24,000 nucleotides of DNA, from assembly GCA_005223125.1 (NCBI GenBank), contig NJBH01000011.1:77055-101054 (forward strand). The letters run 5' to 3'. Origin of the DNA: Promethearchaeota archaeon Loki_b32 (GTDB taxonomy: Archaea; Asgardarchaeota; Lokiarchaeia; Sigyniarchaeales; SOKP01). Position 1 is the first letter of the stretch; every line of letters begins with the position of its first letter. The notes below the pieces were generated by a model, which was not told the DNA's origin, ran no database searches, and was given only the letters and a program-made list of their open reading frames with translations. Positions 1,595 to 21,640 of the stretch are shown in pieces. The position numbers and the translations under genes are program-made.

Positions 1595-1856
1595 TTAAAG
1601 TGGTTATATCTCTTCACGGAGTTTTATAATTATTTCTTTCTTGTATTTGGTTTAACATAGCCCAACAAGCCTTTAGATTTTTAGATAAAAAACTATTTGA
1701 AAGATACTAAGGGGGAATATTTAAAAATTTAAATTAACAAATATAATCTCAGTTCAAAGATAAATATTTATCAAGAAATAGAACTTTAAAGATCGTGAAT
1801 TAGAGGAAAAAAACCTAGAAATGGATTTTAGCTAAAATTATGAGGTTTATTTTGAA

Positions 1857-5545: not shown

Positions 5546-6598
5546 ATGACTTCTATTACTATTTTTAATGAGAAAATAAAAGATAGTATAACAATGTCTA
5601 ATACTTTAGATAATATAGAAGCGATAATCTTAAAGTATGAGTGTACATTTAAAATACTACTTAGAAAAAGATCCTGGTTATTAAGACTTTCAAGAAAATT
5701 GTGTCCCACTTCCAAGATTTTGTTCTTAAAAGAAGATTTATATTTATATTTATTAAGAAACAATCTTTATATAAAAAACACCACCATTAGGAAATTAATA
5801 AAACCAGAAATTCTTAAAGCCCCCGAATTTCGAGTATACTGTTTATATCTCAATTATATAATACAATTGGTTATCTCTATTATGAAAATCCAGATTTTAT
5901 CTAAGTCTATAGGATTCGAGCATCCTAGTGTGAAGAGAGTTATAGAGATAGCTGAGGATATTATGAGTAAGAACAAAATATTAAATGTGGAAACTCTCTA
6001 CAACGTGGCAAAAAAAATATTGAAATTACCTAGAAACGGACTCTTATTTATAATACAATTTTTAATAAATAAAAAAATTCTAATTGAAGGTTCAAAATTC
6101 TCCAAGGAAACAGTTCTTTTAAATTCCATTAGAAAAAGTGTTTATAATTATATTAGATTGAACCCGGGAGTACATTTTTCTATTTTAAGAAGAAAGGCGC
6201 TATCTGATAAATCAGGAAGTTCGGGACAATTAGTATGGCATTTAGAAATGTTGCTAAAATTTAACTACATTAATAAAATTAAAGTGGGTAATTATACAGT
6301 TTTCCTTCCTTTTGATATGTCTGAGGATATTGGAAAATTAATTTTTCTTCTAAGAGATCAAATAACAAATAAAATAGTTCATTTATTAGTTGGTAAGGAA
6401 ACTTTAGTTAAAGCTGAGATATATAAACAATTAGAAGAAAAAAGAGAAAATGTCTATTATCGCATTAACAATTTACAAGATCATGATGTAATTGCTATAA
6501 GTGAGAGTTCAGATAAAGAAATATGCTTAAACTCGAATAAAAAGGAGATTATTATTGACATTTTAAAATCATTAAAATTAAATACTGAAAATAAATAA
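5546..6598 (+). CDS. multi-winged-helix (tandem wHTH) DNA-binding-type protein
   Basis: At least two clear wHTH units: VYNYIRLNPGVHFSILRRKA...GQLVWHLEMLLKFNYINKIKVGNYTVFLP and ITNKIVHLLVGKETLVKAEIYKQLEEKRENVYYRINNLQDHDVIAI. The frame stays open for 112 codons upstream of Met113 (5882), which is unlikely by chance in DNA this AT-rich, so I use the long ORF. Alternative starts are 5594 and 5882. Confidence 0.5.
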   Translation: MTSITIFNEKIKDSITMSNTLDNIEAIILKYECTFKILLRKRSWLLRLSRKLCPTSKILFLKEDLYLYLLRNNLYIKNTTIRKLIKPEILKAPEFRVYCLYLNYIIQLVISIMKIQILSKSIGFEHPSVKRVIEIAEDIMSKNKILNVETLYNVAKKILKLPRNGLLFIIQFLINKKILIEGSKFSKETVLLNSIRKSVYNYIRLNPGVHFSILRRKALSDKSGSSGQLVWHLEMLLKFNYINKIKVGNYTVFLPFDMSEDIGKLIFLLRDQITNKIVHLLVGKETLVKAEIYKQLEEKRENVYYRINNLQDHDVIAISESSDKEICLNSNKKEIIIDILKSLKLNTENK

Positions 6599-6623: not shown

Positions 6624-7937
6624 ATGATATTAAATTGGAATATTGAGGTTATTGTTAATTTTCTGGTAGCTGCTGTTGGATTAATTTTTACGATAACTAC
6701 TTACTATTCTCCACAAGTTAAGAAAATTAAATCATTATTTTATATTAGATTAGGATTTACCGGTTTTTGGGTTTTCATGCTATTAGATGGATTAGCATTT
6801 CTATTTTTGAGTGAATTCCTTGGATTAATTAACTGTATAAATATATTTCTCGCAACTATATTTATAATTATTGGTGTAAATTATACAATCAAAGAAACTT
6901 TTTATTCTATTGGGTTAATTATAGCTATTGGCTTAGGCGTACTACTTTTTTATGTGGGAACACAACCTGGTGCTGTTGATATAGAATTACAATCCGGGTA
7001 TCTAAGAGTGAGATGGTTGGGATTATTTAATACCTTGGCGATGATATTGAGTGGTGTTGCATTGTATTATTTATTCTATTGGGGAATAAAGACATACAAA
7101 CATGCACCATTTTTAATTAAGAAGGAAGCATCCATATTTTTTATAGGGATTTTAATAGCTTCTCCTTTAAGTCTTACCTTTTATTTCCTTTATATTTTTG
7201 AACCCATTTTAATTCTAGCAAACGCCATAGCCATGTTGGTTGGTGCTATAATCATTACCCTTACAGTTATTAGTGAACCAAAATTGTTATATATATTACC
7301 TTTTACAATTCATCGAATAGTTGTGAAAGATAAAGATGGTCGACCATTATATGATCATGACTGGTCTGAATCGAATATAACTGAAACTATTTTTACTGGA
7401 TTCTTAAACGCTGTACAACTAATGAGTGAAGAGGTAATGCATATAGGAGGATTACTGGATATTCAATTAGAAGAGGGCATTTTAATTTTAAAAGAATCTA
7501 ATCGAATAACAGTAGGGCTTGTATCTTCAAAATCATCAAAATTATTAAGAGATTCAGTAATTAAGTTCACTGAAGATTTTGAGAAAAAATTTGACCGTGA
7601 ATTAAAGAGATCAGAAACGGAGATGTCTCACTATGATGGAGCATTTGAACTCATAGAAAAATACTTTTCTAACTTTCCTTATAAGATTATTAAAAGTAAA
7701 ACAGAACCACTATTATTGAAGGGAAAGTATTTAAAAATTCCATTAGAATTAGAAACCAAACTCCGAAGTGTATTCCCAGATGATAAAGAATATGAGGCAA
7801 TTAAAGCTGAATTATTGAAAGCTCCCCTTTCTTTCGCCTCTGATTTTTTCAAACTCCATGATGATTTGAAAGATGAGATGGAACGAATTTCAGGTGAAGA
7901 AGTTAAATATTTAGATGAAAATTATGAGGAAAATTAG
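6624..7937 (+). CDS. 7-TM membrane protein with cytoplasmic longin/roadblock-like (SNARE-like fold) domain and acidic helical tail
   Basis: Residues 1-220 contain seven hydrophobic segments. Residues ~222-325 (IHRIVVKDKDGRPLYDH ... ETIFTGFLNAVQLMSEEV ... LLDIQLEEGILILKESNRITVGLVSS ... LLRDSVIKFTEDFEKKF) follow a beta-beta-alpha-beta-beta-beta-alpha pattern like sigma-adaptin/longin domains. A purine-rich aggaagagg lies upstream of the ATG. The fold assignment is by eye only. Confidence 0.5.
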   Translation: MILNWNIEVIVNFLVAAVGLIFTITTYYSPQVKKIKSLFYIRLGFTGFWVFMLLDGLAFLFLSEFLGLINCINIFLATIFIIIGVNYTIKETFYSIGLIIAIGLGVLLFYVGTQPGAVDIELQSGYLRVRWLGLFNTLAMILSGVALYYLFYWGIKTYKHAPFLIKKEASIFFIGILIASPLSLTFYFLYIFEPILILANAIAMLVGAIIITLTVISEPKLLYILPFTIHRIVVKDKDGRPLYDHDWSESNITETIFTGFLNAVQLMSEEVMHIGGLLDIQLEEGILILKESNRITVGLVSSKSSKLLRDSVIKFTEDFEKKFDRELKRSETEMSHYDGAFELIEKYFSNFPYKIIKSKTEPLLLKGKYLKIPLELETKLRSVFPDDKEYEAIKAELLKAPLSFASDFFKLHDDLKDEMERISGEEVKYLDENYEEN

Positions 7938-8099: not shown

Positions 8100-8678
8100 T
8101 TATTGACTTACTCTTAAATAAATACCTTTATCAATTAAATTAATAGCAATAATATCTTTTGGTTTAACTTCCTGAATGTCTTGATAATCAAATTTAGACC
8201 TAATTAATGCCAGGACTTCCTCATATTTATTGATAACTAATAAGAGATCTTTCTTTCTTAAAGAAATAGGAAATTTAATTATCATATTTTTCAAAATATT
8301 ATTTCCATAAAGAATTGATTTTTCTCCTTTATCATTCACATAGATTCTTCTAAAACTAGAAAGTTTATTGTTTTTATATAAAAATTCAGCGCCTTCTAAA
8401 CTTATATGGAAATTTCCTTTCTTAATAAAACCAAAATATAAACCTGCTGAGATTATTCTATCACTTTTCAAAGATTGTAATAAGGTATATTGATCTTTTG
8501 AAATTAGAAAAATATTTGGGAATATACTTCTTGATGTTAAACTTTCTGTTGAAAAATATAAAAATTTTTTAAAATTATTAATAATTTGCTGGAAATCTGA
8601 AGAGATTTTAGTAAGTGAAGTAATTATTATTTTCTCTTCAATTTCATTGATCCTTCTAAACTCCAATGTTTCACTCAT
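8100..8678 (-). CDS. NIP7-like ribosome-biogenesis protein homologue (UPF0113 N-domain + PUA domain)
   Basis: It is collinear with eukaryotic NIP7: ISAGLYFGFIKKGNFHISLEGAEFL (compare GICLGKFTKTGKFRLHITSL), GEKSILYGNNILKNMI (compare GEMPFLYGNHVLKAHV), and the C-terminal PUA ending IDKGIYLR (compare DIGEYLR). Confidence 0.65.
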   Translation of the reverse strand: MSETLEFRRINEIEEKIIITSLTKISSDFQQIINNFKKFLYFSTESLTSRSIFPNIFLISKDQYTLLQSLKSDRIISAGLYFGFIKKGNFHISLEGAEFLYKNNKLSSFRRIYVNDKGEKSILYGNNILKNMIIKFPISLRKKDLLLVINKYEEVLALIRSKFDYQDIQEVKPKDIIAINLIDKGIYLRVSQ

Positions 8679-8757: not shown

Positions 8758-9471
8758 ATGGGTATTCGTAAGATAGAAGATGAGATTGATTTAAAAGAAG
8801 CGATGAAAAAAAAAGCAACAGAGCTAAAGATGAAAGATATGCAAGCAAAAGCCTCTGTTGAAAAATTTACGAAAGATAAGCTTAGAGAATTAGCTAAGCA
8901 ACATGGTATTTTATTAGCTCTTACACCAGAATTAAGACAAGAAGTAAAAGAGTTGCAGAAAAAGTACAATATTCCATCTTCAAAAATTATTACTGAACAA
9001 ATTACTGAGCATGACGTATTGAGAAAATTCTCTAAAATTGATTACCAAAAATTGGGAATGTTAGCATATCAGAGAGTTTTAATGAGTAAAGAAGAAACTG
9101 GAGGAATAATCCCTTTATCAGAAGTGTTTGAATTAGTGAGTACTGGAATCTTGAAAGGCAATCTTGATGTGAAAGATGTGGAAAAATCTTTAAAACTACT
9201 GAAGAAAACAAGAGTTATTGAAGACGTAACTGAATTAGATTCTGGTGCTATTATTGTTCGGTTTTTTCCGATTCAATATACAGGGGATGAAGCGAAAGTT
9301 GTTAATTTGGCTAAAGAAAAAGGCGTCCTTACTTTAGAAGATGTATGTAGTAATTTAAACTGGTCACAAGATCGTGCTATAAGAGCATTAAAGTCGCTCG
9401 AAATAAGTGGTATTACAAAATTTAGAGAAAATCTCTTAACAGGGAAACAATGGTATTTCCCATCATTATAA
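8758..9471 (+). CDS. ESCRT-II subunit, EAP30-domain protein (Vps22/Vps36-like)
   Basis: The EAP30-type core is GGIIPLSEVFELV ... KDVEKSLKLLKK ... DSGAIIVRF ... LTLEDVCSNLNWSQDRAIRALKSLEISGI ... KQWYFPSL. This corresponds to the two winged helices and the WFP(S/A)L tail of Vps22/Vps36. An N-terminal charged helix resembles the Vps22 helical extension. Confidence 0.8.
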   Translation: MGIRKIEDEIDLKEAMKKKATELKMKDMQAKASVEKFTKDKLRELAKQHGILLALTPELRQEVKELQKKYNIPSSKIITEQITEHDVLRKFSKIDYQKLGMLAYQRVLMSKEETGGIIPLSEVFELVSTGILKGNLDVKDVEKSLKLLKKTRVIEDVTELDSGAIIVRFFPIQYTGDEAKVVNLAKEKGVLTLEDVCSNLNWSQDRAIRALKSLEISGITKFRENLLTGKQWYFPSL

Positions 9472-9486
9472 TAATAGCATAATTTT

Positions 9487-10380
9487 TTATTCTAATTCAA
9501 TTTTAAACGCTAATTTTCCATTTTCTAACTTTAGGATTTTAGCTCTACGATTCTTTGCTAAAATCTTGAAAATCTCCTCCAAATCTTCAAGGGGAAGTGT
9601 ACTAAAATCTTCTTGTTTTGCTTCTCTTAATTCATATATCATAATAGGTTCGATTTTACCGTTATCATAAGCCCATTTCCATATCTCATCAGACCATACT
9701 TCAAGAGTTTTCCAGTATACTCTTAATCCTTCTTTTTTTTTTGATAACCACTTAGCTTGTTTTTGGCTAATTAATTCTTCAGCAATTTCTATTATATATT
9801 GTTCACGTTTGGTGAAATTTACAAATGGTTTATGTGTAATTACCTCTCTGGTGTATAATATATGAAGAACAGCAAATCTTACATAATCAAAAAGAACTTT
9901 TGCCCATTCTGTTTTCCATGAAATATAATCGTTTTTATTTTTATTTTTATCAGGCATTGTATACATGAATTTTTTCCTTTCTTCCTCTATCCATGGATAA
10001 GCAGTTAATAAATTTTCATAAGCAGTTAATTTTTTTTCTAATAAACCCTTTTCTCCGATAATTTCTTCTTCTAGAGTTTGCAATTCGGCTTCAACTTGCT
10101 CTGCATGCTTTTGATAAACTTTATGATCGATCTCTCCTAATTTTGAAGATAATATATCTTCTAGTTTTTCAAATTGATCTTCTATATAATCTAACTCAGT
10201 AGATTTAATTTCATCTTCTTTTATGATTTGCTTTTGAGCAGCTTCTATTTCTAACTGTTCTTTTTCTTGTTTTAATTTTCTTAATCTTGCTAATTCTTTC
10301 CTTAATTCCTCTAGCTCTTTTTCAGCTTGTTCCTTAACTTCTTTAGGAATTTCTGTAGATTTTTCTCTCTGTCTTTCCAT
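9487..10380 (-). CDS. ESCRT-II subunit Vps25-like, with long N-terminal coiled-coil extension
   Basis: The C-terminal ~165 aa is collinear with eukaryotic Vps25: YPW...ISWKTEWAKVLFDYVR ... HKPFVNF ... IIEIAEELISQKQAKWLSKKKEGLRVYWKTLEVWSDEIWKWAYDNGK...MIYELREAKQEDFSTLPLEDLEEIFKILAKNRRAKILKLENGKLAFKI. I prefer ATG 10380, which is preceded by a GAGGA-like site, over TTG 10392. Confidence 0.75.
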   Translation of the reverse strand: MERQREKSTEIPKEVKEQAEKELEELRKELARLRKLKQEKEQLEIEAAQKQIIKEDEIKSTELDYIEDQFEKLEDILSSKLGEIDHKVYQKHAEQVEAELQTLEEEIIGEKGLLEKKLTAYENLLTAYPWIEEERKKFMYTMPDKNKNKNDYISWKTEWAKVLFDYVRFAVLHILYTREVITHKPFVNFTKREQYIIEIAEELISQKQAKWLSKKKEGLRVYWKTLEVWSDEIWKWAYDNGKIEPIMIYELREAKQEDFSTLPLEDLEEIFKILAKNRRAKILKLENGKLAFKIELE

Positions 10381-10398
10381 AGTAATCCTCAAAATTTA

Positions 10399-11610
10399 TT
10401 ATACTTCTCCGAATTCCTCTGCCCAATCGTTATATTGTTTTAGTAGTGCTGGATGTGTCATTGGTTTTACTTTTTTGAGTGTTTTTTTGAAATCTTTCAA
10501 ATTAATATCTCTAACATTAACTTCTTTATTAGAATCTTCTAAAAGACCACTCATATCTAATTCACGTACTGGCAACATTATTACCTCACGACATACATTT
10601 GCAATATCTCTACCGGAATAACCCTCACTTCTAACAGCTAATTCAACGTAATCTTCATTGGATAATGCTGAATCTACTCCTTCAGTATGAATCTTAAAGA
10701 TTCCAGCTCTAGCTTTTAAATCTGGAAGAGGAACATGCACTCTTTTTTCAAATCTACTTAACATAGCATTGTCTATATCCCAAGGGCGATTTGTTGCCCC
10801 TAATACCAATAATATTTTGTCATGAGTTGATTTCAATCCTTGTATTTCACTTAATAACTGTGTTTTAACTCTTCGCTCGCCACCACTCTCAGAACCCTCT
10901 CCCCGTTTTGTTGCTACTGAATCTATTTCATCCATAAATATTAAACTAGGTGCTTTTAATCTCGCAACTTTAAACAAAGAACTGATTAATTTTTCACTTT
11001 CACCTAACCATTTGCTTAGTAAATCAGCAGAAGATGCACTAAAAAATGTAGCATTACATTCAGTTGCAGCTGCTTTCGCTAATAATGTTTTACCACATCC
11101 AGGAGGTCCAAAGAGTAATATCCCGGACCAAGGCCTTCTCGCTCCGGTAAATAATTCTGGTTTTGCTATTGGTAAAACTATAGCTTCTCTTACAGCTTGT
11201 TTAACATTTTCTAAACCTGCAATATCATTCCATTTTACATTAGGAGATTCTGTAACAATTGTACCCGATATCATATCTATGAGTTCTTGTTCTTCGGATG
11301 ATACTCCAGCTTCAGCTTTCGATTTATCATCACCCCCTGACACACCCGGTCTTCTAGAGAGTCTCGCGCTTCTAGGTCCACCAAGCTGAGATTTCAATAT
11401 TTTTGCGCGATCAACATATTCTTCGATATTTTTTTGACATAACATTCTCATCTGAGGGTTCTTATTATATTTCATAAATTGCATCAATATTTCAGCTGCA
11501 CGTTGATATTTGTTTATAGCTTGTCTGTATTTGCCCTGACTATCTAGAGCAACTGCCTCCTTTGCTGTCGATACAGCATATTGATAAAGTTTCGAATCTA
11601 CCGACGACAT
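10399..11610 (-). CDS. vps4: Vps4-type AAA+ ATPase (MIT domain + AAA + Vps4_C)
   Basis: N-terminal MIT-like three-helix region (AKEAVALDSQGKYRQAINKYQRAAEILMQFMKY...EEYVDRAKILK). Walker A GPPGCGKT, Walker B LIFMDEIDS, second region of homology GATNRPWDIDNAMLSRFEKRV, and C-terminal helix LLKQYNDWAEEFGEV. Confidence 0.93.
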   Translation of the reverse strand: MSSVDSKLYQYAVSTAKEAVALDSQGKYRQAINKYQRAAEILMQFMKYNKNPQMRMLCQKNIEEYVDRAKILKSQLGGPRSARLSRRPGVSGGDDKSKAEAGVSSEEQELIDMISGTIVTESPNVKWNDIAGLENVKQAVREAIVLPIAKPELFTGARRPWSGILLFGPPGCGKTLLAKAAATECNATFFSASSADLLSKWLGESEKLISSLFKVARLKAPSLIFMDEIDSVATKRGEGSESGGERRVKTQLLSEIQGLKSTHDKILLVLGATNRPWDIDNAMLSRFEKRVHVPLPDLKARAGIFKIHTEGVDSALSNEDYVELAVRSEGYSGRDIANVCREVIMLPVRELDMSGLLEDSNKEVNVRDINLKDFKKTLKKVKPMTHPALLKQYNDWAEEFGEV

Positions 11611-11628
11611 GATAACTTTATAAAAACA

Positions 11629-11706
11629 ATTTTATTATTTATAGCTATTCTAATTTAACAATCAGTAATATTAATAATTCTAACCGTATATATCAAATTT
11701 ACTCTT
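11629..11706. repeat. 78-bp direct repeat, copy L (pairs with 15738-15815)
   Basis: Ungapped hand alignment at an offset of 4109 bp gives 71/78 identical positions. Mismatches are at 11635, 11648, 11652, 11677, 11680, 11683 and 11685. The repeat begins 19 nt from the vps4 start codon. Confidence 0.9.
11636..11644 (-). promoter_or_regulatory. candidate TATA box of vps4 (ctataaata on the minus strand)
   Basis: It lies 25-33 nt upstream of the vps4 ATG (11610), the spacing expected for an archaeal promoter with a very short or absent leader. It is inside direct repeat copy L. Specificity is low in AT-rich DNA. Confidence 0.3.
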
Positions 11707-11910
11707 AGAAAGAAAGATAAAATATTCAACATTTATATTATTGACATATTTTAAATATAATGGAAGAAAAAGAAAAGAATTTACGCATGAACCTTTCTAG
11801 AATTCTGTTGTCAATTTAACAATTAAGTTTTATGGAATTATAAAATGTAATTATATATTTATATTTTTGAATTACCTTTATTATTTTAAAAGACAAATAT
11901 AAGAAGTGAA

Positions 11911-13101
11911 ATGGTAGAGTTCAAGATCAATAAATATATTACATTAAAACTTGAATGGAAAAAGACTAATATCTACGTAAATAACAGACTATTTAATCAG
12001 TGTAAATACATATTAACAAGAAAAAAGATCTCTGATTTAGAAGATCTCCTTGAAATGGAATCAGTCGATGAATTATCGGAAAGTTCAATAGACTCTTTTT
12101 TAGAGAATTCATGGGATGACCTTAGGGATTTTGAGCCTGAATTCATAGACATCCCAATAGAAACAAGATTCTGGGTTCATTGTTCAAATTTACAAGTCTG
12201 GGCAGAAAATAATTATGATACAAGATTACTTCATAGTAACCTCTCATTTCCCTTATTGAAGCGATTGGCGAAAGCAGGTGATCCTACTGCTAAAATGGTA
12301 TTCAAAGAAGAAATTGCTAAAAGATTTGCATCAAACTACCCTTCAGTGATAAACTTTCTCACTGAAAAGGGGTATGATGAATATTTGAGTAGGGAAGAGT
12401 TTTTTAATAGTATTCTTTCTAATAATCAAGCCGATACTATGATTGAATTAGAAAAAGTAGTGAATATGAGATACAGTCTGAATGATACTGTCAATAAACC
12501 ACTTAGGGAAGATAATGGAGAAGAAGTATACTTTGCTATAGATAATAGAAATGTCGTAGAACTTGAACTTTATTACAATGAAACACATCCAGAATATTTA
12601 TTAGATTTAATTCATAATTTCAATAAGCTAAAAGTACTATATTTATATCTTAGTGAATATACTGAAATATTTCCTAAAACATCACGGAAGTTCAATTCTT
12701 TGTTAGAATTAAAAGTTGCGATATATGGTTGGACAAAGATTCCAGATATATTTGATAAATTTCCAAATTTGAAGACTTTAGAGATTCATGGAGAAGGAAT
12801 TGTGAATGAACTAAATTCAATTACCAAACTCAAACAATTAGAAACCTTAAAACTGATCTATGTGAATATAGATAAGCTTCCAGACTCATTAGGAGACCTA
12901 AAATCGTTAAAAAATTTATTAATAAGTAATACAAATATTGATACTCTTCCAGATTCAATTGGAACCTTAAAAAATTTATCTTATCTTAGGCTATTAAGAA
13001 ACCCGTTAAAAGAATTACCGAGTTCAATAAAAAATCTAAAAAATCTAAAAAAAATAAAGTTAGATAAAAATCTTCTAGAAAATCTCAGACAAGAGAAATA
13101 A
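11911..13101 (+). CDS. leucine-rich repeat (LRR) protein with uncharacterised N-terminal domain
   Basis: The C-terminal ~150 aa consists of canonical LRRs (LKTLEIHGEGI..., LETLKLIYVNIDKLPDSLGDLKSLKNLLISNTNIDTLPDSIGTLKNLSYLRLLRNPLKELPSSIKNLKNLKKIKLDKNLL). The N-terminal 230 aa has no motif I can name. Confidence 0.8.
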   Translation: MVEFKINKYITLKLEWKKTNIYVNNRLFNQCKYILTRKKISDLEDLLEMESVDELSESSIDSFLENSWDDLRDFEPEFIDIPIETRFWVHCSNLQVWAENNYDTRLLHSNLSFPLLKRLAKAGDPTAKMVFKEEIAKRFASNYPSVINFLTEKGYDEYLSREEFFNSILSNNQADTMIELEKVVNMRYSLNDTVNKPLREDNGEEVYFAIDNRNVVELELYYNETHPEYLLDLIHNFNKLKVLYLYLSEYTEIFPKTSRKFNSLLELKVAIYGWTKIPDIFDKFPNLKTLEIHGEGIVNELNSITKLKQLETLKLIYVNIDKLPDSLGDLKSLKNLLISNTNIDTLPDSIGTLKNLSYLRLLRNPLKELPSSIKNLKNLKKIKLDKNLLENLRQEK

Positions 13102-13351
13102 TCTAATCCTCAAGAAAGATATCTCTTATCGTCTTATCGTATTTAGTAGTCCCATTCTTGATTTTATGCATATAATTTCTTATAATAACTACTTTTGAAT
13201 TCGTAAAATTAATTCTATAATAATATTCTCTATATATTATTCAATCTAATAATTTGATTTATAAATTAATTTAATAGAAAAGTTAAACTCTCAAAAAATA
13301 TATCAAAATTTATTAATTTTTGTTTAAAAAGTTTGGATTGGATACTATTCT

Positions 13352-14125
13352 ATGCTAAGTAAAATACAAAAAATTACTCTGGGTACTAAAGAGTGGGCAG
13401 ATAGCAATGTAAACTGCTACTTAGGCTGTTCAAATAATTGTCGATATTGTTATGCGAAAAAAATGGCAATAAGATTTAATAGGAGGACTGAGGATACGTG
13501 GAGAATAATGATCCCTAATCAAAAAAACATTAAAAAAGGGTATGCTAAGAGAAAAGGGAGGGTCATGTTCCCCAGTTCTCATGATATTACATATGAAAGT
13601 TTAGAAGGCTGCATTATTGTATTAGAGAAACTTTTAAATGCAGGAAACGATGTGTTGATTACTACTAAACCTAGATTAAAATGTATTAAAAAGATTTGCA
13701 GGCTTTTTTTTAAAAAAAAAGAATTAATCCAATTTAGGTTTACCATAACTTCACTTTCAAATGAACTATTAAAATTTTGGGAGCCCTTTGCTCCTTTATT
13801 TGAGGAAAGAATCAATGCATTGAAATTTGCATTTAATAAGGGTTATATGACTAGTGTCTCAATTGAGCCCTTTTTAGATGAAGACCCTTTTACCTTGGTC
13901 GAAACTCTATATCCTTATATAACTGAATCAATATGGATTGGGAAAATGAATTATGTTTTCACCAAGAATATAAAGTCTAAATTCATCAATTTTTATAACC
14001 ATATTGAAAAGATAAACTCTAAAGAAAATCTGTTAAGGATCGTAAAGAGAGCAAAAAATTATGATGAATCTATTATTAGAATTAAGGATAGCATTCATAA
14101 TTTTTTAAATAAAAACAATATATAA
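13352..14125 (+). CDS. radical-SAM-like three-Cys-motif protein (SplB/COG1533-like or phage Gp37/Gp68 DUF5131-like)
   Basis: The N-terminus KEWADSNVNCYLGCSNNCRYCYAKKMAIRF contains CxxxCxxC immediately followed by YA. This resembles both the DNA-repair-photolyase-like rSAM family (NPYxGCxxxCxYCYA) and the Gp37/Gp68 family (WNPxxGC...C..CYAxxMAxR). A TATA-like tttaaaaa lies ~25 nt upstream of the ATG. Confidence 0.65.
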   Translation: MLSKIQKITLGTKEWADSNVNCYLGCSNNCRYCYAKKMAIRFNRRTEDTWRIMIPNQKNIKKGYAKRKGRVMFPSSHDITYESLEGCIIVLEKLLNAGNDVLITTKPRLKCIKKICRLFFKKKELIQFRFTITSLSNELLKFWEPFAPLFEERINALKFAFNKGYMTSVSIEPFLDEDPFTLVETLYPYITESIWIGKMNYVFTKNIKSKFINFYNHIEKINSKENLLRIVKRAKNYDESIIRIKDSIHNFLNKNNI

Positions 14126-14291
14126 TAATTAAATCAAGATTTAAAATATTTAACAAAAAATTACTAAACTTATTATCATTGGGAAATTAAAACAATTATT
14201 ATTTTTAAATTCTATAAAGTAAAAATCGAATCTTTATGTCGGTTTTTGTCGGTTTTTATGTAATTTATACAATAATTACCTAATAATTTTA

Positions 14292-14299
14292 TTTATAAA
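14292..14299 (+). promoter_or_regulatory. candidate TATA box (tttataaa) for the TcmP-like gene
   Basis: It lies 26-33 nt upstream of ATG 14325, which favours that ATG over GTG 14301 as the start. Specificity is low in AT-rich DNA. Confidence 0.3.
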
Positions 14300-14324
14300 G
14301 GTGTTCCTTAACATTATTCATCAA

Positions 14325-15329
14325 ATGGCTAATACTAAGAAGAAAACCAATTTTGAATTTCATCTGCAAAATATAAAGAAGTTAGATAATGATTGGAGAT
14401 TTTTAGAAAAAATTCCAAATTTTCCTTATAAAAATCCAAATTTTTACTATTCTAGGGGTGATAATAGCGGATGGTGGATGGCTATCAAGCAAACCGCTTT
14501 CAGAGGATATATAACCGCATATCTCTCAATTTTGGGGAAAGTAAGTGACCGGAAACTTTATTTTATTGATCCTTTAAGTAGTTATGGTTTGGTTAGAGTT
14601 ACGAAAAATCAGGGAAAAGATAGATTTACATTCCCTGGTACTTCTATTAATGCTGAATTAATATCTAATCGTAAAAAAAAAGGATTTGATGGTTTTTATA
14701 TAAATGATTTAAAGCCTACAGAAAGAAAAATATTAAACGAGAGAATGTTGTCAATTAAAAATTATTATAAAAGTAATAGTGAAATCAACATTGACTTAAG
14801 TAACGATAGAATTGATTCTAATAAATGGCTCATTGATACAATGAGAGTTATCGATGAGGAAAATAGTTTTTATCATTGTTTGATCATAATTGATAATCAA
14901 GCTATGGATATCTATTATGATACTATTCAGCAAGTTAGAGAAATCAGTGAATTTAGTGATGTTATAATTACTTTTCAAGACGCTAATATTGCTCGAGCAG
15001 TTCCCTCAGGAACTCCAAAGATTAAGAAGTTTTTTGGATGTGAAATTCCCACTGACACAAAAGATCCAAGAAAAGTCTTATGTAATATATATTGTTCCCA
15101 ATTAAGCAAAGTTAATTTACCTAAAATTCAGAAAATGAAAGTGGCTTCTGAAAATAAATTTTACTATACATTATTATTTTGTTGTCGACAGAAAGCCACA
15201 GGAAAATGGTTTAAAATAATCAAATATTACAATGATGAAAGATTTAAGAACTTCACAGATAGAGATCAAAAAAGAATGTGGGACATTAAGGAAGGTAAAC
15301 AGCTAAGTCTTACTCATGATTGGAATTGA
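14325..15329 (+). CDS. TcmP-like (three-Cys-motif partner protein-like) hypothetical protein
   Basis: It lies immediately downstream of the CxxxCxxC gene on the same strand. The pattern W..IKQTAFRGYITAYLSIL......LYFIDPLSSYG, and later YYTLLFCC, matches my recollection of the TcmP family layout (K...L..YL..Y..IL....Y.D.F.G.G ... Y.L.F.S). Family membership is not verified. The ORF opens at GTG 14301. Confidence 0.45.
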   Translation: MANTKKKTNFEFHLQNIKKLDNDWRFLEKIPNFPYKNPNFYYSRGDNSGWWMAIKQTAFRGYITAYLSILGKVSDRKLYFIDPLSSYGLVRVTKNQGKDRFTFPGTSINAELISNRKKKGFDGFYINDLKPTERKILNERMLSIKNYYKSNSEINIDLSNDRIDSNKWLIDTMRVIDEENSFYHCLIIIDNQAMDIYYDTIQQVREISEFSDVIITFQDANIARAVPSGTPKIKKFFGCEIPTDTKDPRKVLCNIYCSQLSKVNLPKIQKMKVASENKFYYTLLFCCRQKATGKWFKIIKYYNDERFKNFTDRDQKRMWDIKEGKQLSLTHDWN

Positions 15330-15531
15330 AACGTTTTAATGATTTTTTACTATTATCCTCCTTTTTATGTTATGAAATTTGTATTATAATGTAAAAAAAA
15401 TTTCGATTAAAGAGTATCATATGACAATTTTTCCTATTTATTATTAAAATCTAATTCCCTTATTTATTAAATCATTAAAAGAACTTCATAAAATAAATAT
15501 AACATTAAGTTCATTCTTATTATTTGAGATA

Positions 15532-15738
15532 ATGCATAAAATTTTCTTTCGGAATCAAGGTCAAGGAAAAGAGATCTCATTATCTGAAGATCATCTTCTA
15601 AATATACTTATCAATGAGTTTCAATTTGCTAATGATATTGAAATTAACTTATGTTTGTTCGGGAATCTAGGGAATGAACTTTTTCTTGACCCTCACCTAG
15701 AAAGGAAATTAGAAAATGAAATTAAAGATAGAAGCTGA
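15532..15738 (+). CDS. hypothetical 68-aa ORF (doubtful)
   Basis: An open frame only, with no recognisable motif. Its stop codon abuts direct repeat copy R. Confidence 0.2.
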   Translation: MHKIFFRNQGQGKEISLSEDHLLNILINEFQFANDIEINLCLFGNLGNELFLDPHLERKLENEIKDRS

Positions 15739-15815
15739 TTTTACTATTTATAGCTAATCTTATTTAACAATCAGTAATATTAATAGTTTTATCAGTATAT
15801 ATCAAATTTACTCTT
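15738..15815. repeat. 78-bp direct repeat, copy R (pairs with 11629-11706)
   Basis: See copy L. It has the same orientation and ends 92 nt upstream of the ESCRT-III ATG (15908). It contains an identical copy of the tatttatag element (15745-15753). Confidence 0.9.
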
Positions 15816-15869
15816 TAAATGAATGAGAATAAAGAATGGTCTCCAAAAAATTAAATACCCATCATAGCA

Positions 15870-15877
15870 TTTATATA
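15870..15877 (+). promoter_or_regulatory. candidate TATA box (tttatata) for the ESCRT-III gene
   Basis: It lies 31-38 nt upstream of ATG 15908. Specificity is low in AT-rich DNA. Confidence 0.25.
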
Positions 15878-15907
15878 TTATATAATTACTAATTAGATTT
15901 GATAAAT

Positions 15908-16543
15908 ATGGGTTTTCTAAAGGATATTTCAAAATGGTTGTCTGGTGGTAAGAGTAAAGATGGTCCCCGCTCTGCTGCGATTAAATTGAAAGTATTTAAT
16001 AAAAGATTGATGAGACAAACAAAAAAATTAGAAATTAGCGCAAAACTTGCAAGAGATAAAGCCGTAAATTTAAGAAAACAGGGAGATTTAGACGGTTCAA
16101 AATTTCATGCGAGGAATTACCTTCAAGTAAAGAAGCAAGCGAGAGCTGTGGAAATGTTTCGCACCAATTTGGAAGGGCTCCTTTTCAAATTAGAACAAGC
16201 AAATGCAGTTAAAGACGTATCTCAAATCATGACAGGTATTGCCCAGTCTCTAGCAACTTTAAAAAGCCAGCTTTCGGTGCCACAAATGACACAATTGATG
16301 AGTCAAATCGACATTGACATGGAAGAATTTGCCGTTACTGCTGATATCGCAACAGACGGTATGGATAGTATCAGTATTGATACTGCTGTGATGGATTCAG
16401 ACGTATCTGAGGTTCTCGGAGAAATTGATGCCGAAATCCAGGTAGAAATGGGAGTTGCTTTACCAAGTGCGGCTTCTGGTGCTTCTGATGAGAAGATAGC
16501 TGAATTAGAGAAAGAATTAAAGCGATTGAAATCTGACGAATAA
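15908..16543 (+). CDS. ESCRT-III subunit (Snf7 family, Vps2/24/46 = CHMP1/2/3-like) with C-terminal MIM1-like helix
   Basis: A basic N-terminal helical hairpin (AIKLKVFNKRLMRQTKKLEISAKLARDKAVNLRKQGDLDGSKFHARNYLQVKKQ) is followed by an acidic C-terminal half. LSVPQMTQLMSQIDIDMEEF parallels CHMP2 MNLPQIQKIMMEFERQ. The tail is DEKIAELEKELKRLK. ATG 15908 is preferred over TTG 15899. Confidence 0.87.
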   Translation: MGFLKDISKWLSGGKSKDGPRSAAIKLKVFNKRLMRQTKKLEISAKLARDKAVNLRKQGDLDGSKFHARNYLQVKKQARAVEMFRTNLEGLLFKLEQANAVKDVSQIMTGIAQSLATLKSQLSVPQMTQLMSQIDIDMEEFAVTADIATDGMDSISIDTAVMDSDVSEVLGEIDAEIQVEMGVALPSAASGASDEKIAELEKELKRLKSDE

Positions 16544-16745
16544 AGTTAGTCTTTTTATTATTCACTTAATTTAATCACTCGGCAAAATTGAGGCAAGTTT
16601 GATTTTTATATTCAATTTTTAATCAATAATCAAGATCTTTTTTCAAAAGATAAGAAATAATAAAAAATATAAGTATTTCCTTTAGATTAAATTTAAAAAG
16701 ATACTAAATAATTATTGATTTAATTATATAACTATTTTGAGCAGA

Positions 16746-17297
16746 ATGGATTTTAACTTTAAAGTTATTATTATTGGACCTCCTGCTGTGGGTAAGACAA
16801 GCCTTCTAAATAGATTTATACATAACGACTTTAAATTGAGTTATAAAATGACTGTTGGTGTTGATTTTTTAACTAAAGCTTTGGAATATGAACCATCCAA
16901 ATTTGTTAAACTCCATATTTGGGATATAGGAGGTCAAGAAAAATTTAAATTTCTCCATCGTAGCTTTTACGAAGGCGCATTTGGTGCATTTATTGTATTT
17001 GATCTCTTAAGACATCAAACATTTTCAAGTATGAAAACTTGGCTTTCAGAAATGCGTAGCATTGTAATTGATGATATTCCTAAAGTAATAATAGGAAATA
17101 AGTCCGATTTAATACCTGAAATTGGTCAGATTATAGATAGGAGTGAAGTAGAAGAATATGCAAAAAAAAAAGGCTGTTTTTATGTTGAAACATCAGCTAA
17201 AACCGGAGAAAATGTTGAAAATGCTTTTCTCGAACTTACAAATCGCATGATAGAGAAAATGGGGAAGATTATTAACAATAATAAAGAAAATCTATAA
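16746..17297 (+). CDS. Rab/Ras-like small GTPase
   Basis: All five G boxes are present: G1 GPPAVGKTS, G2 TVGVDF, G3 WDIGGQEKF, G4 GNKSDL, G5 ETSAKTGENV. There is no C-terminal Cys prenylation motif (the protein ends NNNKENL). ATG 16746 is preferred over TTG 16737. Confidence 0.9.
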   Translation: MDFNFKVIIIGPPAVGKTSLLNRFIHNDFKLSYKMTVGVDFLTKALEYEPSKFVKLHIWDIGGQEKFKFLHRSFYEGAFGAFIVFDLLRHQTFSSMKTWLSEMRSIVIDDIPKVIIGNKSDLIPEIGQIIDRSEVEEYAKKKGCFYVETSAKTGENVENAFLELTNRMIEKMGKIINNNKENL

Positions 17298-18450: not shown

Positions 18451-18516
18451 ACAATTAGAATTTCTAAGAATCATTAAATTTTAATTTTTTAATATATTCT
18501 TATTATTATTAAAAAT

Positions 18517-18588
18517 GCGCTCTTAGTATAGTGGTTAGTATGCCAGGTTGCCAACCTGGCGACCCGGGTTCAATTCCCGGAGGGCGCA
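18517..18588 (+). tRNA. tRNA-Gly (anticodon GCC)
   Basis: The cloverleaf folds by hand. Acceptor stem gcgctct/agggcgc; anticodon stem ccagg/cctgg with loop ttGCCaa; T arm ccggg-ttcaatt-cccgg; discriminator a. It is 72 nt with no encoded CCA, and a T-run follows. Confidence 0.9.
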
Positions 18589-18623
18589 TTTTAAACTATT
18601 AATCTAAAATTAAGGAGTCTAAT

Positions 18624-20037: not shown

Positions 20038-20348
20038 TTTTAAAAATGAATTGAATTATGAATACAAGAGATAATAAGGAAATGTTCTATAAATATATTT
20101 GTTTATAAGGAAACATTTCCTTTTTCCTCACATCCATAAAAGTCCTATAGTGAATGCTGTATTTCCTTATTATTTAAATAATATTTAGAAATTGTTAAAA
20201 TAATAATCGAAAAAAATAGATTCTTTTTATGAGAGAAAAGAAGAACTAAAAAAGTTCAAATGATTAATGTTATATTCCGGAGATAATACCAACATAATAC
20301 CCCGAAATATATAACAACACGTGAAAGGTCTGTTTCACGAAAGTTTAA

Positions 20349-20612
20349 AAAATTGATCATGAATTTTTATATGATACTCTTCAGTATGTAAAAAACAGAA
20401 ACCTCGCTCTTAATGAATGTATAAGAGTTCTTAAGGGTGATGGTGTAATTGTAGTTATAGAATGGAACAAAAAGCAAATTGAAAAAGTGTACAAGAAATA
20501 TGGCTACAAAATTGAATTTATGGACCCTAGAGGTTATCTTAAAAGGAATGATATTTCATTTGATGTTTTAAAAGGAGATATAGTAAACATATACCTACTT
20601 TGGAAAAAATAG
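20349..20612 (+). pseudogene. 3' remnant of a class I SAM-dependent methyltransferase (no start codon, lacks the SAM-binding N-terminal half)
   Basis: Hand translation gives KIDHEFLYDTLQYVKNRNLALNECIRVLKGDGVIVVIEWNKKQIEKVYKKYGYKIEFMDPRG...LLWKK*. This matches the post-motif-II part of Methyltransf_11-type enzymes (h.h...AL.E..RVLK.GG.hhh.-w). The frame is closed by TAA at 20346, and no GxGxG motif I is found upstream in any frame. Confidence 0.5.
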
Positions 20613-20642
20613 CAGAATATATTTAGAAATATAGGTAATTTT

Positions 20643-21278
20643 TTAGGGATCTATATCTCTTAATTTATTGAAAAATTCATCGGGATCATCTATTCCCGAC
20701 CTTAATAGCACACATTCCTTATGTATATCAAGTTTTTTGCTATTTAATTCTAGATAATCCTTATCTAATTCATTTTCAAAACGTAACCAACACCCCAAAG
20801 CATCAGAATAATCTTGCCACCCTCCAAATACTAGTTTACTCAATATGTAATCTTCTTTTGAGGCGACCCAACACTCAATTCCGGCAAAATTAATTTTAAG
20901 CCTTCTCTTTAGACCTAGTGGTCCAATTTTTTTATAATTACTAAGGCTTTTTTGATCAATGATATAATTATCAAATTTAATAATTTGTTGCTTATCTAAA
21001 AATTGTAATAAATGGATATCCTTAGCAAGTTTTGCAGCTGAATCCCAGTCTTGTATAGGAAAAAATTCATTTTTTTTTAATATTGTTATATATGTATCTA
21101 AATTATGATTAACTGAATAAATATCAACAACGAAATCAATATCTTGAGTTGTTCTCGTTTCAGAATAAATGCTCACTAAAATTCCCCCAACTAAATAATA
21201 TTTAATACCAAATTCTCTCTCAATTTTTTCTAAAAAATTAACAATTTGAAAAAAAGCTTTTTCATATCGTATTTCCAT
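20643..21278 (-). CDS. nucleotidyltransferase-fold protein (AbiEii/DUF1814-like or DUF6036-like; putative toxin)
   Basis: YYLVGGILVSIYSETRTTQDIDFVVDI matches the GG-x(n)-R-x-[ST]-x-D-[IL]-D minimal NTase motif seen in AbiEii-type toxins. It lies 3 nt downstream of a 77-aa ORF on the same strand. Confidence 0.55.
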   Translation of the reverse strand: MEIRYEKAFFQIVNFLEKIEREFGIKYYLVGGILVSIYSETRTTQDIDFVVDIYSVNHNLDTYITILKKNEFFPIQDWDSAAKLAKDIHLLQFLDKQQIIKFDNYIIDQKSLSNYKKIGPLGLKRRLKINFAGIECWVASKEDYILSKLVFGGWQDYSDALGCWLRFENELDKDYLELNSKKLDIHKECVLLRSGIDDPDEFFNKLRDIDP

Positions 21279-21281
21279 AAT

Positions 21282-21515
21282 TCATTTTCTCCTTTTCATT
21301 TTTTCATTGATTTTAAACATTTTGATAATGATATCTTTAATAGATTTATTCGGATATCTCTCCTTTTCTATATTAATGTAATTATTTAAATTAAAATTAC
21401 ATAGTTCAAAAAAAAGCGATATAGAAGCTTCAGTTGGTATTTTTTTCATCAATTCTATTCTTCCTTTAAAATTTCGTGCTATTTTTCTAAAATTTTTGTT
21501 TGAGTCAATTGTCAT
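21282..21515 (-). CDS. small 77-aa protein, putative partner (antitoxin-like) of the nucleotidyltransferase
   Basis: It is tightly coupled to the downstream NTase gene (3-nt gap). It has a basic C-terminus (KMKRRK) and no recognisable motif. Confidence 0.35.
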   Translation of the reverse strand: MTIDSNKNFRKIARNFKGRIELMKKIPTEASISLFFELCNFNLNNYINIEKERYPNKSIKDIIIKMFKINEKMKRRK

Positions 21516-21640
21516 TTATTCTTTCATCTAAGATTTTATCTTTATAATGTTGATTCCTTTAAATATAATAATAGGAAAAAGGTTTATTAATATTTTAGAA
21601 ACCTTTAGATTTTCATTATCCTTACTTGTTAATTTATATT

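Follow-up and report, generated by a model that had tools for sequence, protein, structure and literature searches.

Does this locus encode a eukaryote-type ESCRT pathway (for endosomal sorting complexes that are required for transport) in an archaeon, or a cell division (Cdv) system with unrelated regulators beside it, and does all of the DNA between its genes belong to the same system? We examined a 24,000-nucleotide stretch of contig NJBH01000011.1 from Promethearchaeota archaeon Loki_b32, a metagenome-assembled genome (MAG); this whole stretch is referred to as the window. A first-pass annotation, made from the sequence alone, had described positions 8758-16543 as ESCRT machinery comprising an EAP30 protein, a Vps25-like protein, Vps4 and a Snf7 protein. 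All four open reading frames (ORFs) are present where it had placed them, and all score above the Pfam gathering cut-offs for EAP30, ESCRT-II/Vps25, the Vps4 domains and Snf7, respectively. The E-values range from 1e-10 to 1e-40, and 65-93% amino acid identity is kept in more than 40 related loci, which together exclude chance. We hold with high confidence that the region encodes the core of the eukaryote-like ESCRT machinery of Lokiarchaeia (Asgard archaea) and is the orthologue of Lokiarch_37450-37480, here in the MAG Loki_b32. The span itself was drawn too generously: its four genes are ESCRT genes, and the 4.3 kb between Vps4 and Snf7 are foreign to the cluster. Coordinates of the features discussed below are given in Table 1.

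Table 1. Features of the ESCRT locus, its insert and its nearest neighbors (window coordinates)
Feature	Position	Strand	Remarks
NIP7-like pre-PUA/PUA protein (UPF0113)	8100-8678	-	Pfam UPF0113 46.7 bits, pre-PUA_NIP7 31.9 bits
Vps22/SNF8-like ESCRT-II subunit (EAP30 family)	8758-9471	+	237 aa; Pfam EAP30
Vps25-like tandem winged-helix core, about aa 126-297	9487-10005	-	Pfam ESCRT-II; solved Vps25 structures
Vps25 N-terminal extension, aa 1-125	10006-10380	-	acidic, clade-specific; three predicted long helices
Vps4 AAA+ ATPase (MIT, AAA, lid, C-terminal helix)	10399-11610	-	403 aa; 18 bp upstream of Vps25
Copy 1 of duplicated control segment	11629-11720		92-nt direct repeat; conserved across species
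Strain-specific insert, not ESCRT	11707-15737		4,031 bp; absent from 39 loci with a 183-278 bp gap
Leucine-rich repeat (LRR) protein, insert cargo	11911-13101	+	Pfam LRR_14
Radical-SAM/DUF5131 protein, insert cargo	13352-14125	+	Pfam Radical_SAM; CxxxCxxC (CSNNCRYC)
TcmP-like protein, insert cargo	14301-15329	+	PADLOC PDC-M41A
Truncated 5' end of HExxH-protein gene, insert cargo	15532-15738	+	68-aa ORF
Copy 2 (15738-15829) and ESCRT-III-proximal control region	15738-15907		more divergent allele
ESCRT-III subunit, Vps2/24/46 (CHMP1/2/3, 'ESCRT-IIIA') class	15908-16543	+	211 aa; MIM1-like C-terminal helix
Rab-like small GTPase	16737-17297	+	Pfam Ras 160 bits; without C-terminal prenylation Cys

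The window is AT-rich (24-33% GC) and densely coding. Its Vps25-like protein is 100% identical to CEE43_08880 and its Snf7 protein 100% identical to CEE43_08910, both from Loki_b32, for which NCBI gives the lineage Archaea; Promethearchaeati; Promethearchaeota. The ATG starts proposed for these two genes, at 10380 and 15908, agree with the public annotations of 297 and 211 residues. Close homologues were found in the hundreds, from Lokiarchaeial MAGs, and a scan of GTDB species representatives yielded 43 loci (related loci carry L numbers below). Wherever a contig covers the block, including the complete chromosomes CP070831.1 and CP070805.1, the order is Snf7(-)/Vps4(+)/Vps25(+)/EAP30(-)/NIP7-like(+), with the NIP7-like gene displaced by 1.4-2.6 kb in four loci (L007, L009, L016 and L042). 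Vps4 and Vps25 are co-directional, EAP30 is convergent with them and the ESCRT-IIIA gene is divergent from Vps4. As they share a direction and are separated by only 18 bp, Vps4 and Vps25 form a probable operon. We also considered eukaryotic contamination and rejected it, given the prokaryotic gene density, the GC content, the archaeal housekeeping neighbors and the presence of the same locus in complete Lokiarchaeial chromosomes. The NCBI names of related MAGs are inconsistent: L006, L008, L010, L014, L015, L018, L031 and L039 are labeled Thorarchaeota, Hodarchaeota, Hermodarchaeota or Odinarchaeota, and the source of protein P0225 is labeled Heimdallarchaeota. Their ESCRT proteins are about 67-93% identical to those of the window, and these phylum labels are unreliable.

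To which ESCRT-II subunit does the EAP30 protein correspond? Both peptides quoted for it in the first-pass annotation, GGIIPLSEVFELV and QWYFPSL, occur in its translation. Pfam EAP30 (PF04157) matches at 46.6 bits (cut-off 26.8), with residues 1-219 running over profile positions 1-214 of 219. In a PDB search with the single sequence, SNF8 was found at 8.7e-8 and Vps36 at 0.012; with a profile of 14 sequences (A5), SNF8/Vps22 improved to 1.4e-10 and Vps36 to 1.5e-3. Residues 15-220 align with residues 19-222 of the SNF8 chain 2zme_A and yeast Vps22 covers 28-219, and in these sequence alignments an N-terminal helical region and two winged-helix domains are matched to solved Vps22/SNF8. No Vps36-type GLUE/PH or other cargo-binding domain was detected in the protein, which at 237 residues has no room for one. 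Because it has no such additional domain and Vps36 scores about 10^7 times worse than Vps22, we assign it as Vps22-like rather than Vps36. The protein is 67-91% identical in 40 loci, and its stop codon lies 15 bp from that of the convergent Vps25 gene. Yeast two-hybrid and biochemical work on orthologues has found that Loki Vps22 homodimerizes (PMC9192718), and published work thus indicates a Vps22 homodimer in place of the eukaryotic pairing with a GLUE-domain Vps36, a protein for which the window has no gene.

The Vps25-like ORF extends over 297 residues from the ATG annotated by NCBI (the mechanical ORF call begins at a TTG at 10392). It had been described as a double winged-helix protein, and this holds for its tandem winged-helix core, which matches solved Vps25 structures; the description missed a conserved N-terminal extension of 125 residues, and the protein does not match the compact two-winged-helix form of about 180 residues. 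Pfam ESCRT-II (PF05871) scores 39.2 bits against a cut-off of 27, over residues 198-261 and profile positions 65-129 of 138 only, that is, the second winged helix. Matches in the PDB reach further: 9uyv_A at 1.4e-45 (residues 102-294), 7pb9_A at 1.2e-19 (residues 126-287), human 3cuq_C at 1.2e-5 (residues 159-289) and yeast 1u5t_C at 1.5e-5, with both winged-helix domains aligning with human VPS25. The tandem winged-helix core is common to the window protein, to Odinarchaeal Vps25 (7pb9; PMC9192718) and to 9uyv, an "ESCRT-II complex subunit" that is probably, as we infer, the MK-D1 VPS25 of bioRxiv 10.1101/2025.11.01.685982.

The extension is acidic (isoelectric point (pI) 4.8), with helices predicted at 13-49, 64-78 and 86-127 at a predicted local distance difference test (pLDDT) score of about 60-78. 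It is nearly as conserved as the winged-helix core, with many invariant positions in 25 orthologues (A2), and has no Pfam or PDB match. An exhaustive search of 1.84e9 cluster representatives matched it to only 17 proteins, which confines it by sequence to a narrow clade. In the three longest of these (P0287, P0294 and P0295), the extension is followed by a Vps25 domain. Four shorter matches that we scanned (133-191 residues) have no Pfam domain and may be fragments; none of the matches has any non-Vps25 domain. A reading of the extension as a steadiness-box or ESCRT-I-like module was rejected, since only Vps25 orthologues and fragments match it. Eukaryotic Vps25 docks onto Vps22/Vps36 through an N-terminal PPXY-type motif. 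The segment YPWIEEERKKFMYTMPDK of the window protein, which does not vary among orthologues and which matches Asgard Vps25 structures at their N-terminus, contains no PPXY motif. Asgard Vps25 proteins with extra N-terminal subdomains have been described (PMC10936438; bioRxiv 10.1101/2025.11.01.685982), so the extension is a known kind of Asgard Vps25 feature in a clade-specific form. The N-terminal extension reported for MK-D1 VPS25 was called unstructured, whereas that of the window is strongly conserved and predicted to be helical.

Could the two ESCRT-II-like proteins instead be generic winged helix-turn-helix (wHTH) regulators that do not act with ESCRT-III and Vps4? Winged-helix domains are common in archaeal regulators, the EAP30 protein has a sub-threshold TrmB match (0.053) and other weak helix-turn-helix (HTH) matches, and the Pfam ESCRT-II match is limited to the second winged helix, but we regard this as very improbable. 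Scores specific to the two families exceed the gathering cut-offs, EAP30 coverage is near full-length, and in the structures of Vps25 and Vps22 both winged-helix domains are covered by the matches. More than 40 genomes, without exception, keep the genes linked to Vps4 and ESCRT-III, and the orthologous Loki proteins show Vps22-Vps22, ESCRT-I-Vps22 and Vps25-ESCRT-IIIB interactions (PMC9192718). We thus retain the two ORFs as ESCRT-II subunits, having found family-specific rather than generic matches for both.

The third protein is Vps4, with the MIT domain, Walker A and B motifs, second region of homology (SRH) and Vps4_C helix that had been reported for it. All of its domains exceed the Pfam cut-offs: MIT at 55.2 bits (cut-off 30), AAA at 137.4 (21.2), AAA_lid_3 at 38.8 (27.2) and Vps4_C at 25.5 (21.3). 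Yeast Vps4 aligns at 328 bits (residues 13-361) and human VPS4B at 318 bits, each in a single stretch. The Walker A motif GPPGCGKT, the Walker B motif IFMDEID and pore loop 1, SKWLGESE, are conserved in 40-41 loci. Two regions depart from the eukaryotic protein. In eukaryotic Vps4 the SRH reads RRRF and supplies paired arginine fingers. In the window it reads AMLSRFEKR, with a single arginine (residues 279-287; 10552-10578, minus strand), and among 42 Vps4 tblastn hits 40 keep it; the alignment with VAT pairs it with ALRRPGRFD and ALLRAGRFD across a two-residue gap. By the comparison with eukaryotic Vps4, one of the paired SRH arginines would be a serine in the window protein (LSRF). Only 42 residues follow the end of the yeast alignment (query residue 361, yeast residue 364 of 437), and Vps4_C is matched only at profile positions 22-61 of 61. 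Because 42 residues follow the lid and the Vps4_C match covers the terminal helix only, we infer that the beta-domain that binds Vta1/LIP5 is reduced or absent, with about 17 residues between the lid and the C-terminal helix. The pore-loop-2 region, KRGEGSESGGERRVK, holds three arginines, and an 'arginine collar' has been described for Asgard Vps4 (PMC7240154). The Vps4 of Loki is reported to have ATPase activity, and Asgard Vps4 can partly make up for the loss of vps4 in yeast (PMC7240154).

For the Snf7 protein, the first-pass annotation had proposed the Vps2/24/46 type. Pfam Snf7 (PF03357) matches at 51.8 bits (cut-off 27.3), with residues 30-195 covering profile positions 6-170 of 171. Searched as a single sequence against the PDB, it matched CHMP2A (4.6e-9), CHMP1B (5e-8) and Vps24 (3e-5), followed by the Lokiarchaeial Vps20/32/60-like protein 9fn1 (9e-5), CdvB (1.5e-3), Heimdall ESCRT-IIIB (1.6e-3) and yeast Snf7 (0.02-0.05). 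A profile of 22 orthologues (A4) again placed CHMP2A (2.9e-11), CHMP1B (1.7e-10) and Vps24 (1.6e-5) closest, above CdvB (1.1e-4), Loki ESCRT-IIIB 9fn1 (1.9e-3), Heimdall ESCRT-IIIB (8.7e-3) and yeast Snf7, which was above 1 and went unreported at E ≤ 1. The N-terminal half is basic (pI 10.54, residues 1-120) and the C-terminal half acidic (pI 4.05, residues 121-211). The N-terminus, MGFLKDISKWLSGG, is invariant and the C-terminal DEKIAELEKELKRLKSDE is conserved. At the extreme C-terminus lies SDEKIAELEKELKRLKSDE, with the L/I-xx-L-xx-L-K spacing of an MIT-interacting motif of type 1 (MIM1) and no proline-rich MIM2 motif, near-invariant in all loci; as MIM1 consensus we used (D/E)xxLxxRLxxL(K/R) (PMC7240154, PMC10936438). 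On the strength of the profile ranking, the charge asymmetry, the invariant N-terminus and the MIM1-type C-terminal helix, we place this protein in the Vps2/24/46 (ESCRT-IIIA) class, in line with the proposal. MIM1-like helices have been found in Asgard Vps2/24/46 proteins, and trees group Loki Vps2/24/46 with the eukaryotic ones (PMC7240154, Lu et al.). It is the only Snf7-family ORF in the window, one of the two Asgard ESCRT-III paralogues. As a separate observation, the amino acid identities of Snf7 proteins to that of the window fall across species into two groups, 74-82% and 86-93%, which do not track Vps4 or Vps25 identity.

With the four proteins characterized, we returned to the question of whether they might form a Cdv-type division system such as that of archaea of the TACK group (Thaumarchaeota, Aigarchaeota, Crenarchaeota, Korarchaeota), built from CdvB and CdvC with unrelated winged-helix regulators nearby. 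Homologous ESCRT-III and Vps4 genes adjoin in both systems, the best NCBIfam models are indeed CdvC (285.7 bits for Vps4) and CdvB (21.9 bits for Snf7), and a solved 'CdvB, Vps2 like protein' matches at 1.1e-4. The NCBIfam result follows from a collection without Asgard or eukaryotic models, and both scores lie far below the cut-offs of these CdvC/CdvB equivalogs (NF041006, NF041008), 650 and 370 bits, respectively. We found no CdvA-like ORF among the 28 window ORFs and segments scanned, whereas CdvA belongs to the TACK system (CdvA, CdvB, CdvC). The Snf7 protein has a MIM1-like helix instead of the MIM2 motif and C-terminal winged-helix tail of CdvB, and it matches CHMP2A and CHMP1B about 10^6 to 10^7 times better than CdvB. 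Lastly, the winged-helix proteins match the EAP30 and ESCRT-II families specifically. A Cdv-type reading is effectively refuted, and we give it next to no probability. The first-pass annotation was right in taking ESCRT-II, ESCRT-III and Vps4 together as the eukaryote-like version, and its alternative grouping of the Snf7 ORF with CdvB/PspA did not materialize, as CHMP2A, CHMP1B and Vps24 are closest in the profile search.

Several points set limits to the identification of the cluster as eukaryote-like ESCRT machinery. The LSRF form of the SRH and the reduced beta-domain suggest that details of ATPase assembly and of Vta1-type regulation may differ from those in eukaryotes. The MIM1-like helix of the ESCRT-III subunit has a glutamate where the eukaryotic consensus has an arginine. 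An AlphaFold2 model of the full Vps25-like protein, from a 25-sequence alignment with at least 76% identity, reached a mean pLDDT of only 57.7 and modeled the winged-helix half poorly, probably because the alignment was shallow. The subfamily calls, in turn, draw on relative profile scores, motifs and synteny. We discarded a Foldseek search of the Vps25 model against the PDB, in which nothing fell below E 0.2, BAR-domain helices ranked top and the true Vps25 (1w7p_D) ranked 28. With the model of low confidence and the fold search uninformative, the winged-helix architecture of Vps25 rests on sequence alignment to solved structures. Nothing in the data contradicts the ESCRT identification, and none of the Vps25 extension, the Vps4 SRH change and the reduced beta-domain conflicts with function.

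How would these parts work together? The components, motifs and gene organization described here come from the sequence, and for the mechanism we rely on the eukaryotic pathway together with yeast two-hybrid and biochemical data published for Asgard proteins. The Vps22-like protein would homodimerize and bind Vps25, forming an ESCRT-II-like platform on the membrane. Vps25 would then recruit an ESCRT-IIIB subunit of the Vps20/32/60 class, probably encoded elsewhere in the genome, with which ESCRT-IIIA would co-polymerize, so that the membrane is deformed or constricted. The MIT domain of Vps4 would bind the MIM1 helix, and the polymer would be disassembled by pulling through the central pore. 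For Loki proteins, yeast two-hybrid experiments have found that Vps25 interacts with ESCRT-IIIB and Vps4 with ESCRT-III, and have linked ESCRT-I (Vps28 and a steadiness-box protein) to Vps22 (PMC9192718). In Loki genomes, the ESCRT-IIIB, ESCRT-I and ubiquitin genes lie elsewhere (PMC9192718, PMC5840170). Within the window, no matches to ESCRT-IIIB, VPS28, Vps23_core, Mod_r, UEV or ubiquitin were found in the 28 ORFs and segments scanned (8 of them at E ≤ 10), and small or unannotated ORFs and N-terminal extensions gave no ESCRT-I or steadiness-box signals at E ≤ 10.

The same parts might serve cytokinesis, as ESCRT-III and Vps4 do in Sulfolobales, rather than ubiquitin-directed sorting or vesicle formation. 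For TACK archaea, ESCRT-III/Vps4 is a division machine (PMC5840170), the window has no ubiquitin or ESCRT-I gene linked to the block, and Lokiarchaeota keep their ubiquitin genes and their ESCRT genes in two distinct parts of the genome (PMC9192718). The presence of ESCRT-II, which in eukaryotes is coupled to ESCRT-I and ubiquitinated cargo, speaks for sorting instead, as do the two-hybrid links between Loki ESCRT-I and Vps22. A cytokinetic role is possible, and we consider it the less probable of the two, though the content of the window does not discriminate between them.

How the cluster compares with known systems bears on its novelty, which the first-pass annotation had tied to a source lineage outside the described Asgard clades. 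The Lokiarchaeial ESCRT-II/ESCRT-IIIA/Vps4 cluster is already known, having been described in 2015 and since studied biochemically and structurally; the cluster of Lokiarchaeum GC14_75 was reportedly described by Spang et al. that year. As the block corresponds to Lokiarch_37450-37480 and its source, Loki_b32, belongs to an already described Asgard clade, no claim of novelty follows for the cluster. In GC14_75, Lokiarch_37450 is Vps22/EAP30, 37460 Vps25, 37470 Vps4 and 37480 a Vps2-class ESCRT-III of 209 residues (PMC5840170 Table 1). The window has the same four genes in the same order, and its ESCRT-III of 211 residues has the same basic and acidic halves, for which pI values of 11.1 and 3.2 were given in Lokiarch_37480 (PMC5840170). 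ESCRT-IIIB and ESCRT-I lie outside the cluster in GC14_75 (ESCRT-IIIB Lokiarch_16760, Vps23-like 16740 and Vps28 10170; PMC5840170) and outside the window here. The two differ in that the window comes from another Lokiarchaeial lineage (GC14_75 proteins are outside the best 120 matches, all of which are at least 76-78% identical) and in that a 4.0-kb insert splits its Vps4 and ESCRT-III genes. With eukaryotic ESCRT the window has in common the MIT-MIM1 logic, the pore loop 1 KWxGESE, the pore-loop-2 arginines and the charge asymmetry of ESCRT-III. It differs from it in the 125-residue N-terminus of Vps25, in the reduced Vps4 beta-domain and LSRF in place of RRRF, in having one linked ESCRT-III gene, and in having no Vta1, Bro1 or ESCRT-0 genes.

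What, then, separates Vps4 from its ESCRT-III gene in this strain? In 39 loci, including strains that are 97-99% identical, the gap between the two genes is 183-278 bp (median 188 bp). It contains strongly conserved blocks, among them a TATA-like box some 25-35 nt upstream of either start codon, and a 41-nt element that does not differ between species with only 83% identity in Vps25. These conserved blocks and the 41-nt identity across species suggest that the spacer of about 190 bp is a shared, constrained bidirectional control region. In the window, the distance is 4,297 bp. A repeat search identified a direct repeat of 92 nt (11629-11720 and 15738-15829; 87% identical, 4,109 bp spacing) at the two ends of the interval. 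Located about 25-33 nt upstream of the Vps4 start codon, the TATA-like box in copy 1 reads CTATAAATA on the minus strand; in the copy 2 region, ATTTATATA is TATA-like and lies upstream of the Snf7 start codon by about 35 nt. A scan for sigma-70-type promoters (69 sites against 55 ± 6.5 expected) was set aside as meaningless for an AT-rich archaeon.

The insert is absent even from strains whose Vps25 is 100% identical. Compared with strains in which Vps25 is 100% or 99% identical (L045-L047 and L049), homology at 97-100% runs to 11706 and resumes at 15738, and 78 bp of intergenic sequence that is single-copy in those strains occur on either side of the insert. From 15738 to about 16236, the window is only 84-93% identical to L045 and its sister strains, as against 97-100% elsewhere, and identity is back to 97-100% beyond that point, inside the ESCRT-IIIA gene. 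Based on these identities, the foreign tract would take in three parts: the cargo, a diverged version of the control region and ~330 bp at the start of ESCRT-IIIA. This composition points to recombination with a more distant relative as the route of acquisition. No donor of the imported tract was found among L001-L050, where the best match is 88%. Copy 2 is nearly identical to copy B of L054 and to the single copy in L011.

Two observations count against the insert as a genuine feature: it is seen in one MAG contig only, and neither junction had an exact match in JGI metagenome contigs. The segment might then be an assembly chimera, as the bounding repeat of about 90 nt is the kind of sequence where assemblers mis-join and as the right flank is a different allele, which is expected when two strains are merged. 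We find a chimera unlikely. The independent assemblies L054 and L055 have the same architecture around another cargo, and their left junction agrees with that of the window as far as 11721. At the right junction a gene is cut off at codon 67, and there is no long k-mer common to the native context of that gene (L053) and the promoter segment, which argues against a de Bruijn chimera because one would need such a shared k-mer. Moreover, identity returns smoothly to 97-100% within Snf7, as in a recombination tract, and the deposited record annotates the genes contiguously, judged by tag spacing from 08880 to 08910. We therefore treat the insert as a probably real, strain-specific acquisition.

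Other strains suggest that this is not the only cassette at the site. In the ENA contigs L054 and L055, whose Snf7 is 94% identical to that of the window, two copies of the promoter segment (609-699 and 1402-1487 in L054) flank a different cargo of 0.7 kb with a 75-residue ORF. L011, from another species (1-1684), has the conserved element upstream of Vps4, followed by 1.6 kb without Snf7 before the contig ends, and may carry a third variant. As L054/L055 and L011 show other content at the same place, the control-region site appears to be recurrently occupied. Among near-identical strains, the site has at least three states: empty (189 bp), a 0.7-kb cassette, and the 4.0-kb cassette with LRR and PDC-M41-like genes. 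We tentatively raise the possibility, which we rate below even chances, that in this group of Lokiarchaeial species the control region captures foreign cassettes repeatedly. The cassettes would spread by homologous recombination, which would also replace the 5' part of ESCRT-IIIA.

The LRR gene had been listed among eukaryote-like neighbors of the cluster. Such a gene exists, and it is cargo of the strain-specific insert, absent from all 49 related loci covering the site. The cargo DNA has no match in loci L001-L050. L051-L053 carry its radical-SAM/TcmP part at 79-93% nucleotide identity in other contexts, and the radical-SAM and TcmP genes are adjacent in the window, in L052 and in other Lokiarchaeial contigs. 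The TcmP-like protein has 45 detectable homologues, all Lokiarchaeial, which NCBI names TcmP; the match to TIGR04470, at 44.5 bits, stays far below the cut-off of 410. The 68-residue ORF is 81% identical to the first 67 residues of a protein of at least 206 residues in L053 (340 residues in L052), and the break in this HExxH gene coincides with the junction to repeat copy 2. A three-gene module of radical-SAM/DUF5131, TcmP-like and HExxH (~340 residues) genes recurs in Lokiarchaeial contigs (L052 5027-8180; L053), and the truncation of the third gene at the junction identifies the cargo as a fragment of this module. PADLOC matched the TcmP-like protein to PDC-M41A (7.7e-12) and the radical-SAM-like protein to PDC-M41B (1.4e-6). 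Both components of PDC-M41 are thus matched, weakly, and the HExxH third gene of the local module is truncated in the window; we regard the radical-SAM/TcmP pair as a candidate defense module of the PDC-M41-like type. No recombinase gene was found in the cargo, nor were viral relatives of it found in IMG/VR.

Next, we considered the genes around the cluster. The Rab-like GTPase noted near ESCRT-III is well founded, as its best PDB matches are all Rabs (Rab11 at 2.8e-39, 'Thorarchaeota Rab' at 3.8e-38). It adjoins Snf7 in about 19 of 32 distinct loci (~60%), making it a frequent, not universal, neighbor of ESCRT-III. On the other side, the NIP7-like gene, divergent from EAP30, adjoins it in most loci that reach that far, at only 38-61% identity, and we found no evidence of a functional link between this gene and ESCRT. 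A longin-like gene had also been reported nearby, and here the annotation did not hold: neither longin nor roadblock was matched by any ORF of the window, even at E ≤ 10. The only longin candidate is the cytoplasmic domain of the membrane protein at 6624-7937. This candidate was set aside, as a single-sequence AlphaFold2 model of the C-terminal domain (pLDDT 42) was unusable and its beta-beta-beta-alpha-beta-beta-beta-alpha order is only suggestive. The 6624-7937 protein has seven transmembrane segments and a cytoplasmic domain without sequence support for a longin/roadblock-like fold. It is paired with a multi-wHTH protein at 5546-6598 (HTH_HVO_0163_N, 30 bits, just under the cut-off), and in about half of the loci this gene pair is retained close to the ESCRT block.

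Elsewhere in the window there is further variation between strains. A second strain-specific insertion relative to L045 and L049 lies at 20341-21557, where 1.2 kb stand in place of 27 bp. It contains a DUF6036 nucleotidyltransferase gene (20643-21278, weak AbiEii match) and a 77-residue ORF (21282-21515), a pair that looks like a toxin-antitoxin or abortive-infection type. Position ~8099, between the 6624-7937 gene and the NIP7-like gene, is a variable spot, at which L045 has 112 bp more than the window, and L049 (12311-15403) and L001/CP070831.1 (12303-15728) carry a gene for a protein of 1030-1141 residues without a Pfam domain. A tRNA-Gly(GCC) gene at 18516-18589 lies between PfkB and metallo-beta-lactamase genes. 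In L045-L047 (L045 ~5700-5950), 248 bp replace 34 bp inside this tRNA region, where ARAGORN made no tRNA call; the change could reflect an intron, an insertion or disruption of the gene. At 21641-22489, a conserved 282-residue protein (51-70% identity in many loci) carries a zinc-ribbon-like motif, CPIC...C.H, in its N-terminal part and matches no Pfam family whatever the threshold. Finally, for the region 1590-3121, we noted a 491-residue ORF (1857-3332) without a Pfam match; it is absent from L045 and L049 and 73-91% identical in many other species, and these two sister strains have probably lost it.

The Lokiarchaeial ESCRT-II/ESCRT-III/Vps4 cluster is part of the founding evidence that eukaryotic membrane remodeling predates eukaryotes. 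The window adds a further orthologous copy from a public MAG and leaves the picture of ESCRT origins unchanged. Its re-examination guards against over-reading, as the "eukaryote-like neighborhood" of LRR and longin genes is partly an artefact of a strain-specific insert. The new information is only at the level of populations: a cassette between duplicated promoter segments, together with an exchanged 5' half of ESCRT-IIIA. The control region between Vps4 and ESCRT-IIIA tolerates, and perhaps attracts, cassette insertions, which is relevant to gene flow and regulation in Asgard archaea. If recurrent capture is real and site-specific, it would represent a new kind of insertion hot spot, through which ESCRT-III and Vps4 of natural Asgard populations could lose their common regulation or have it rewired.

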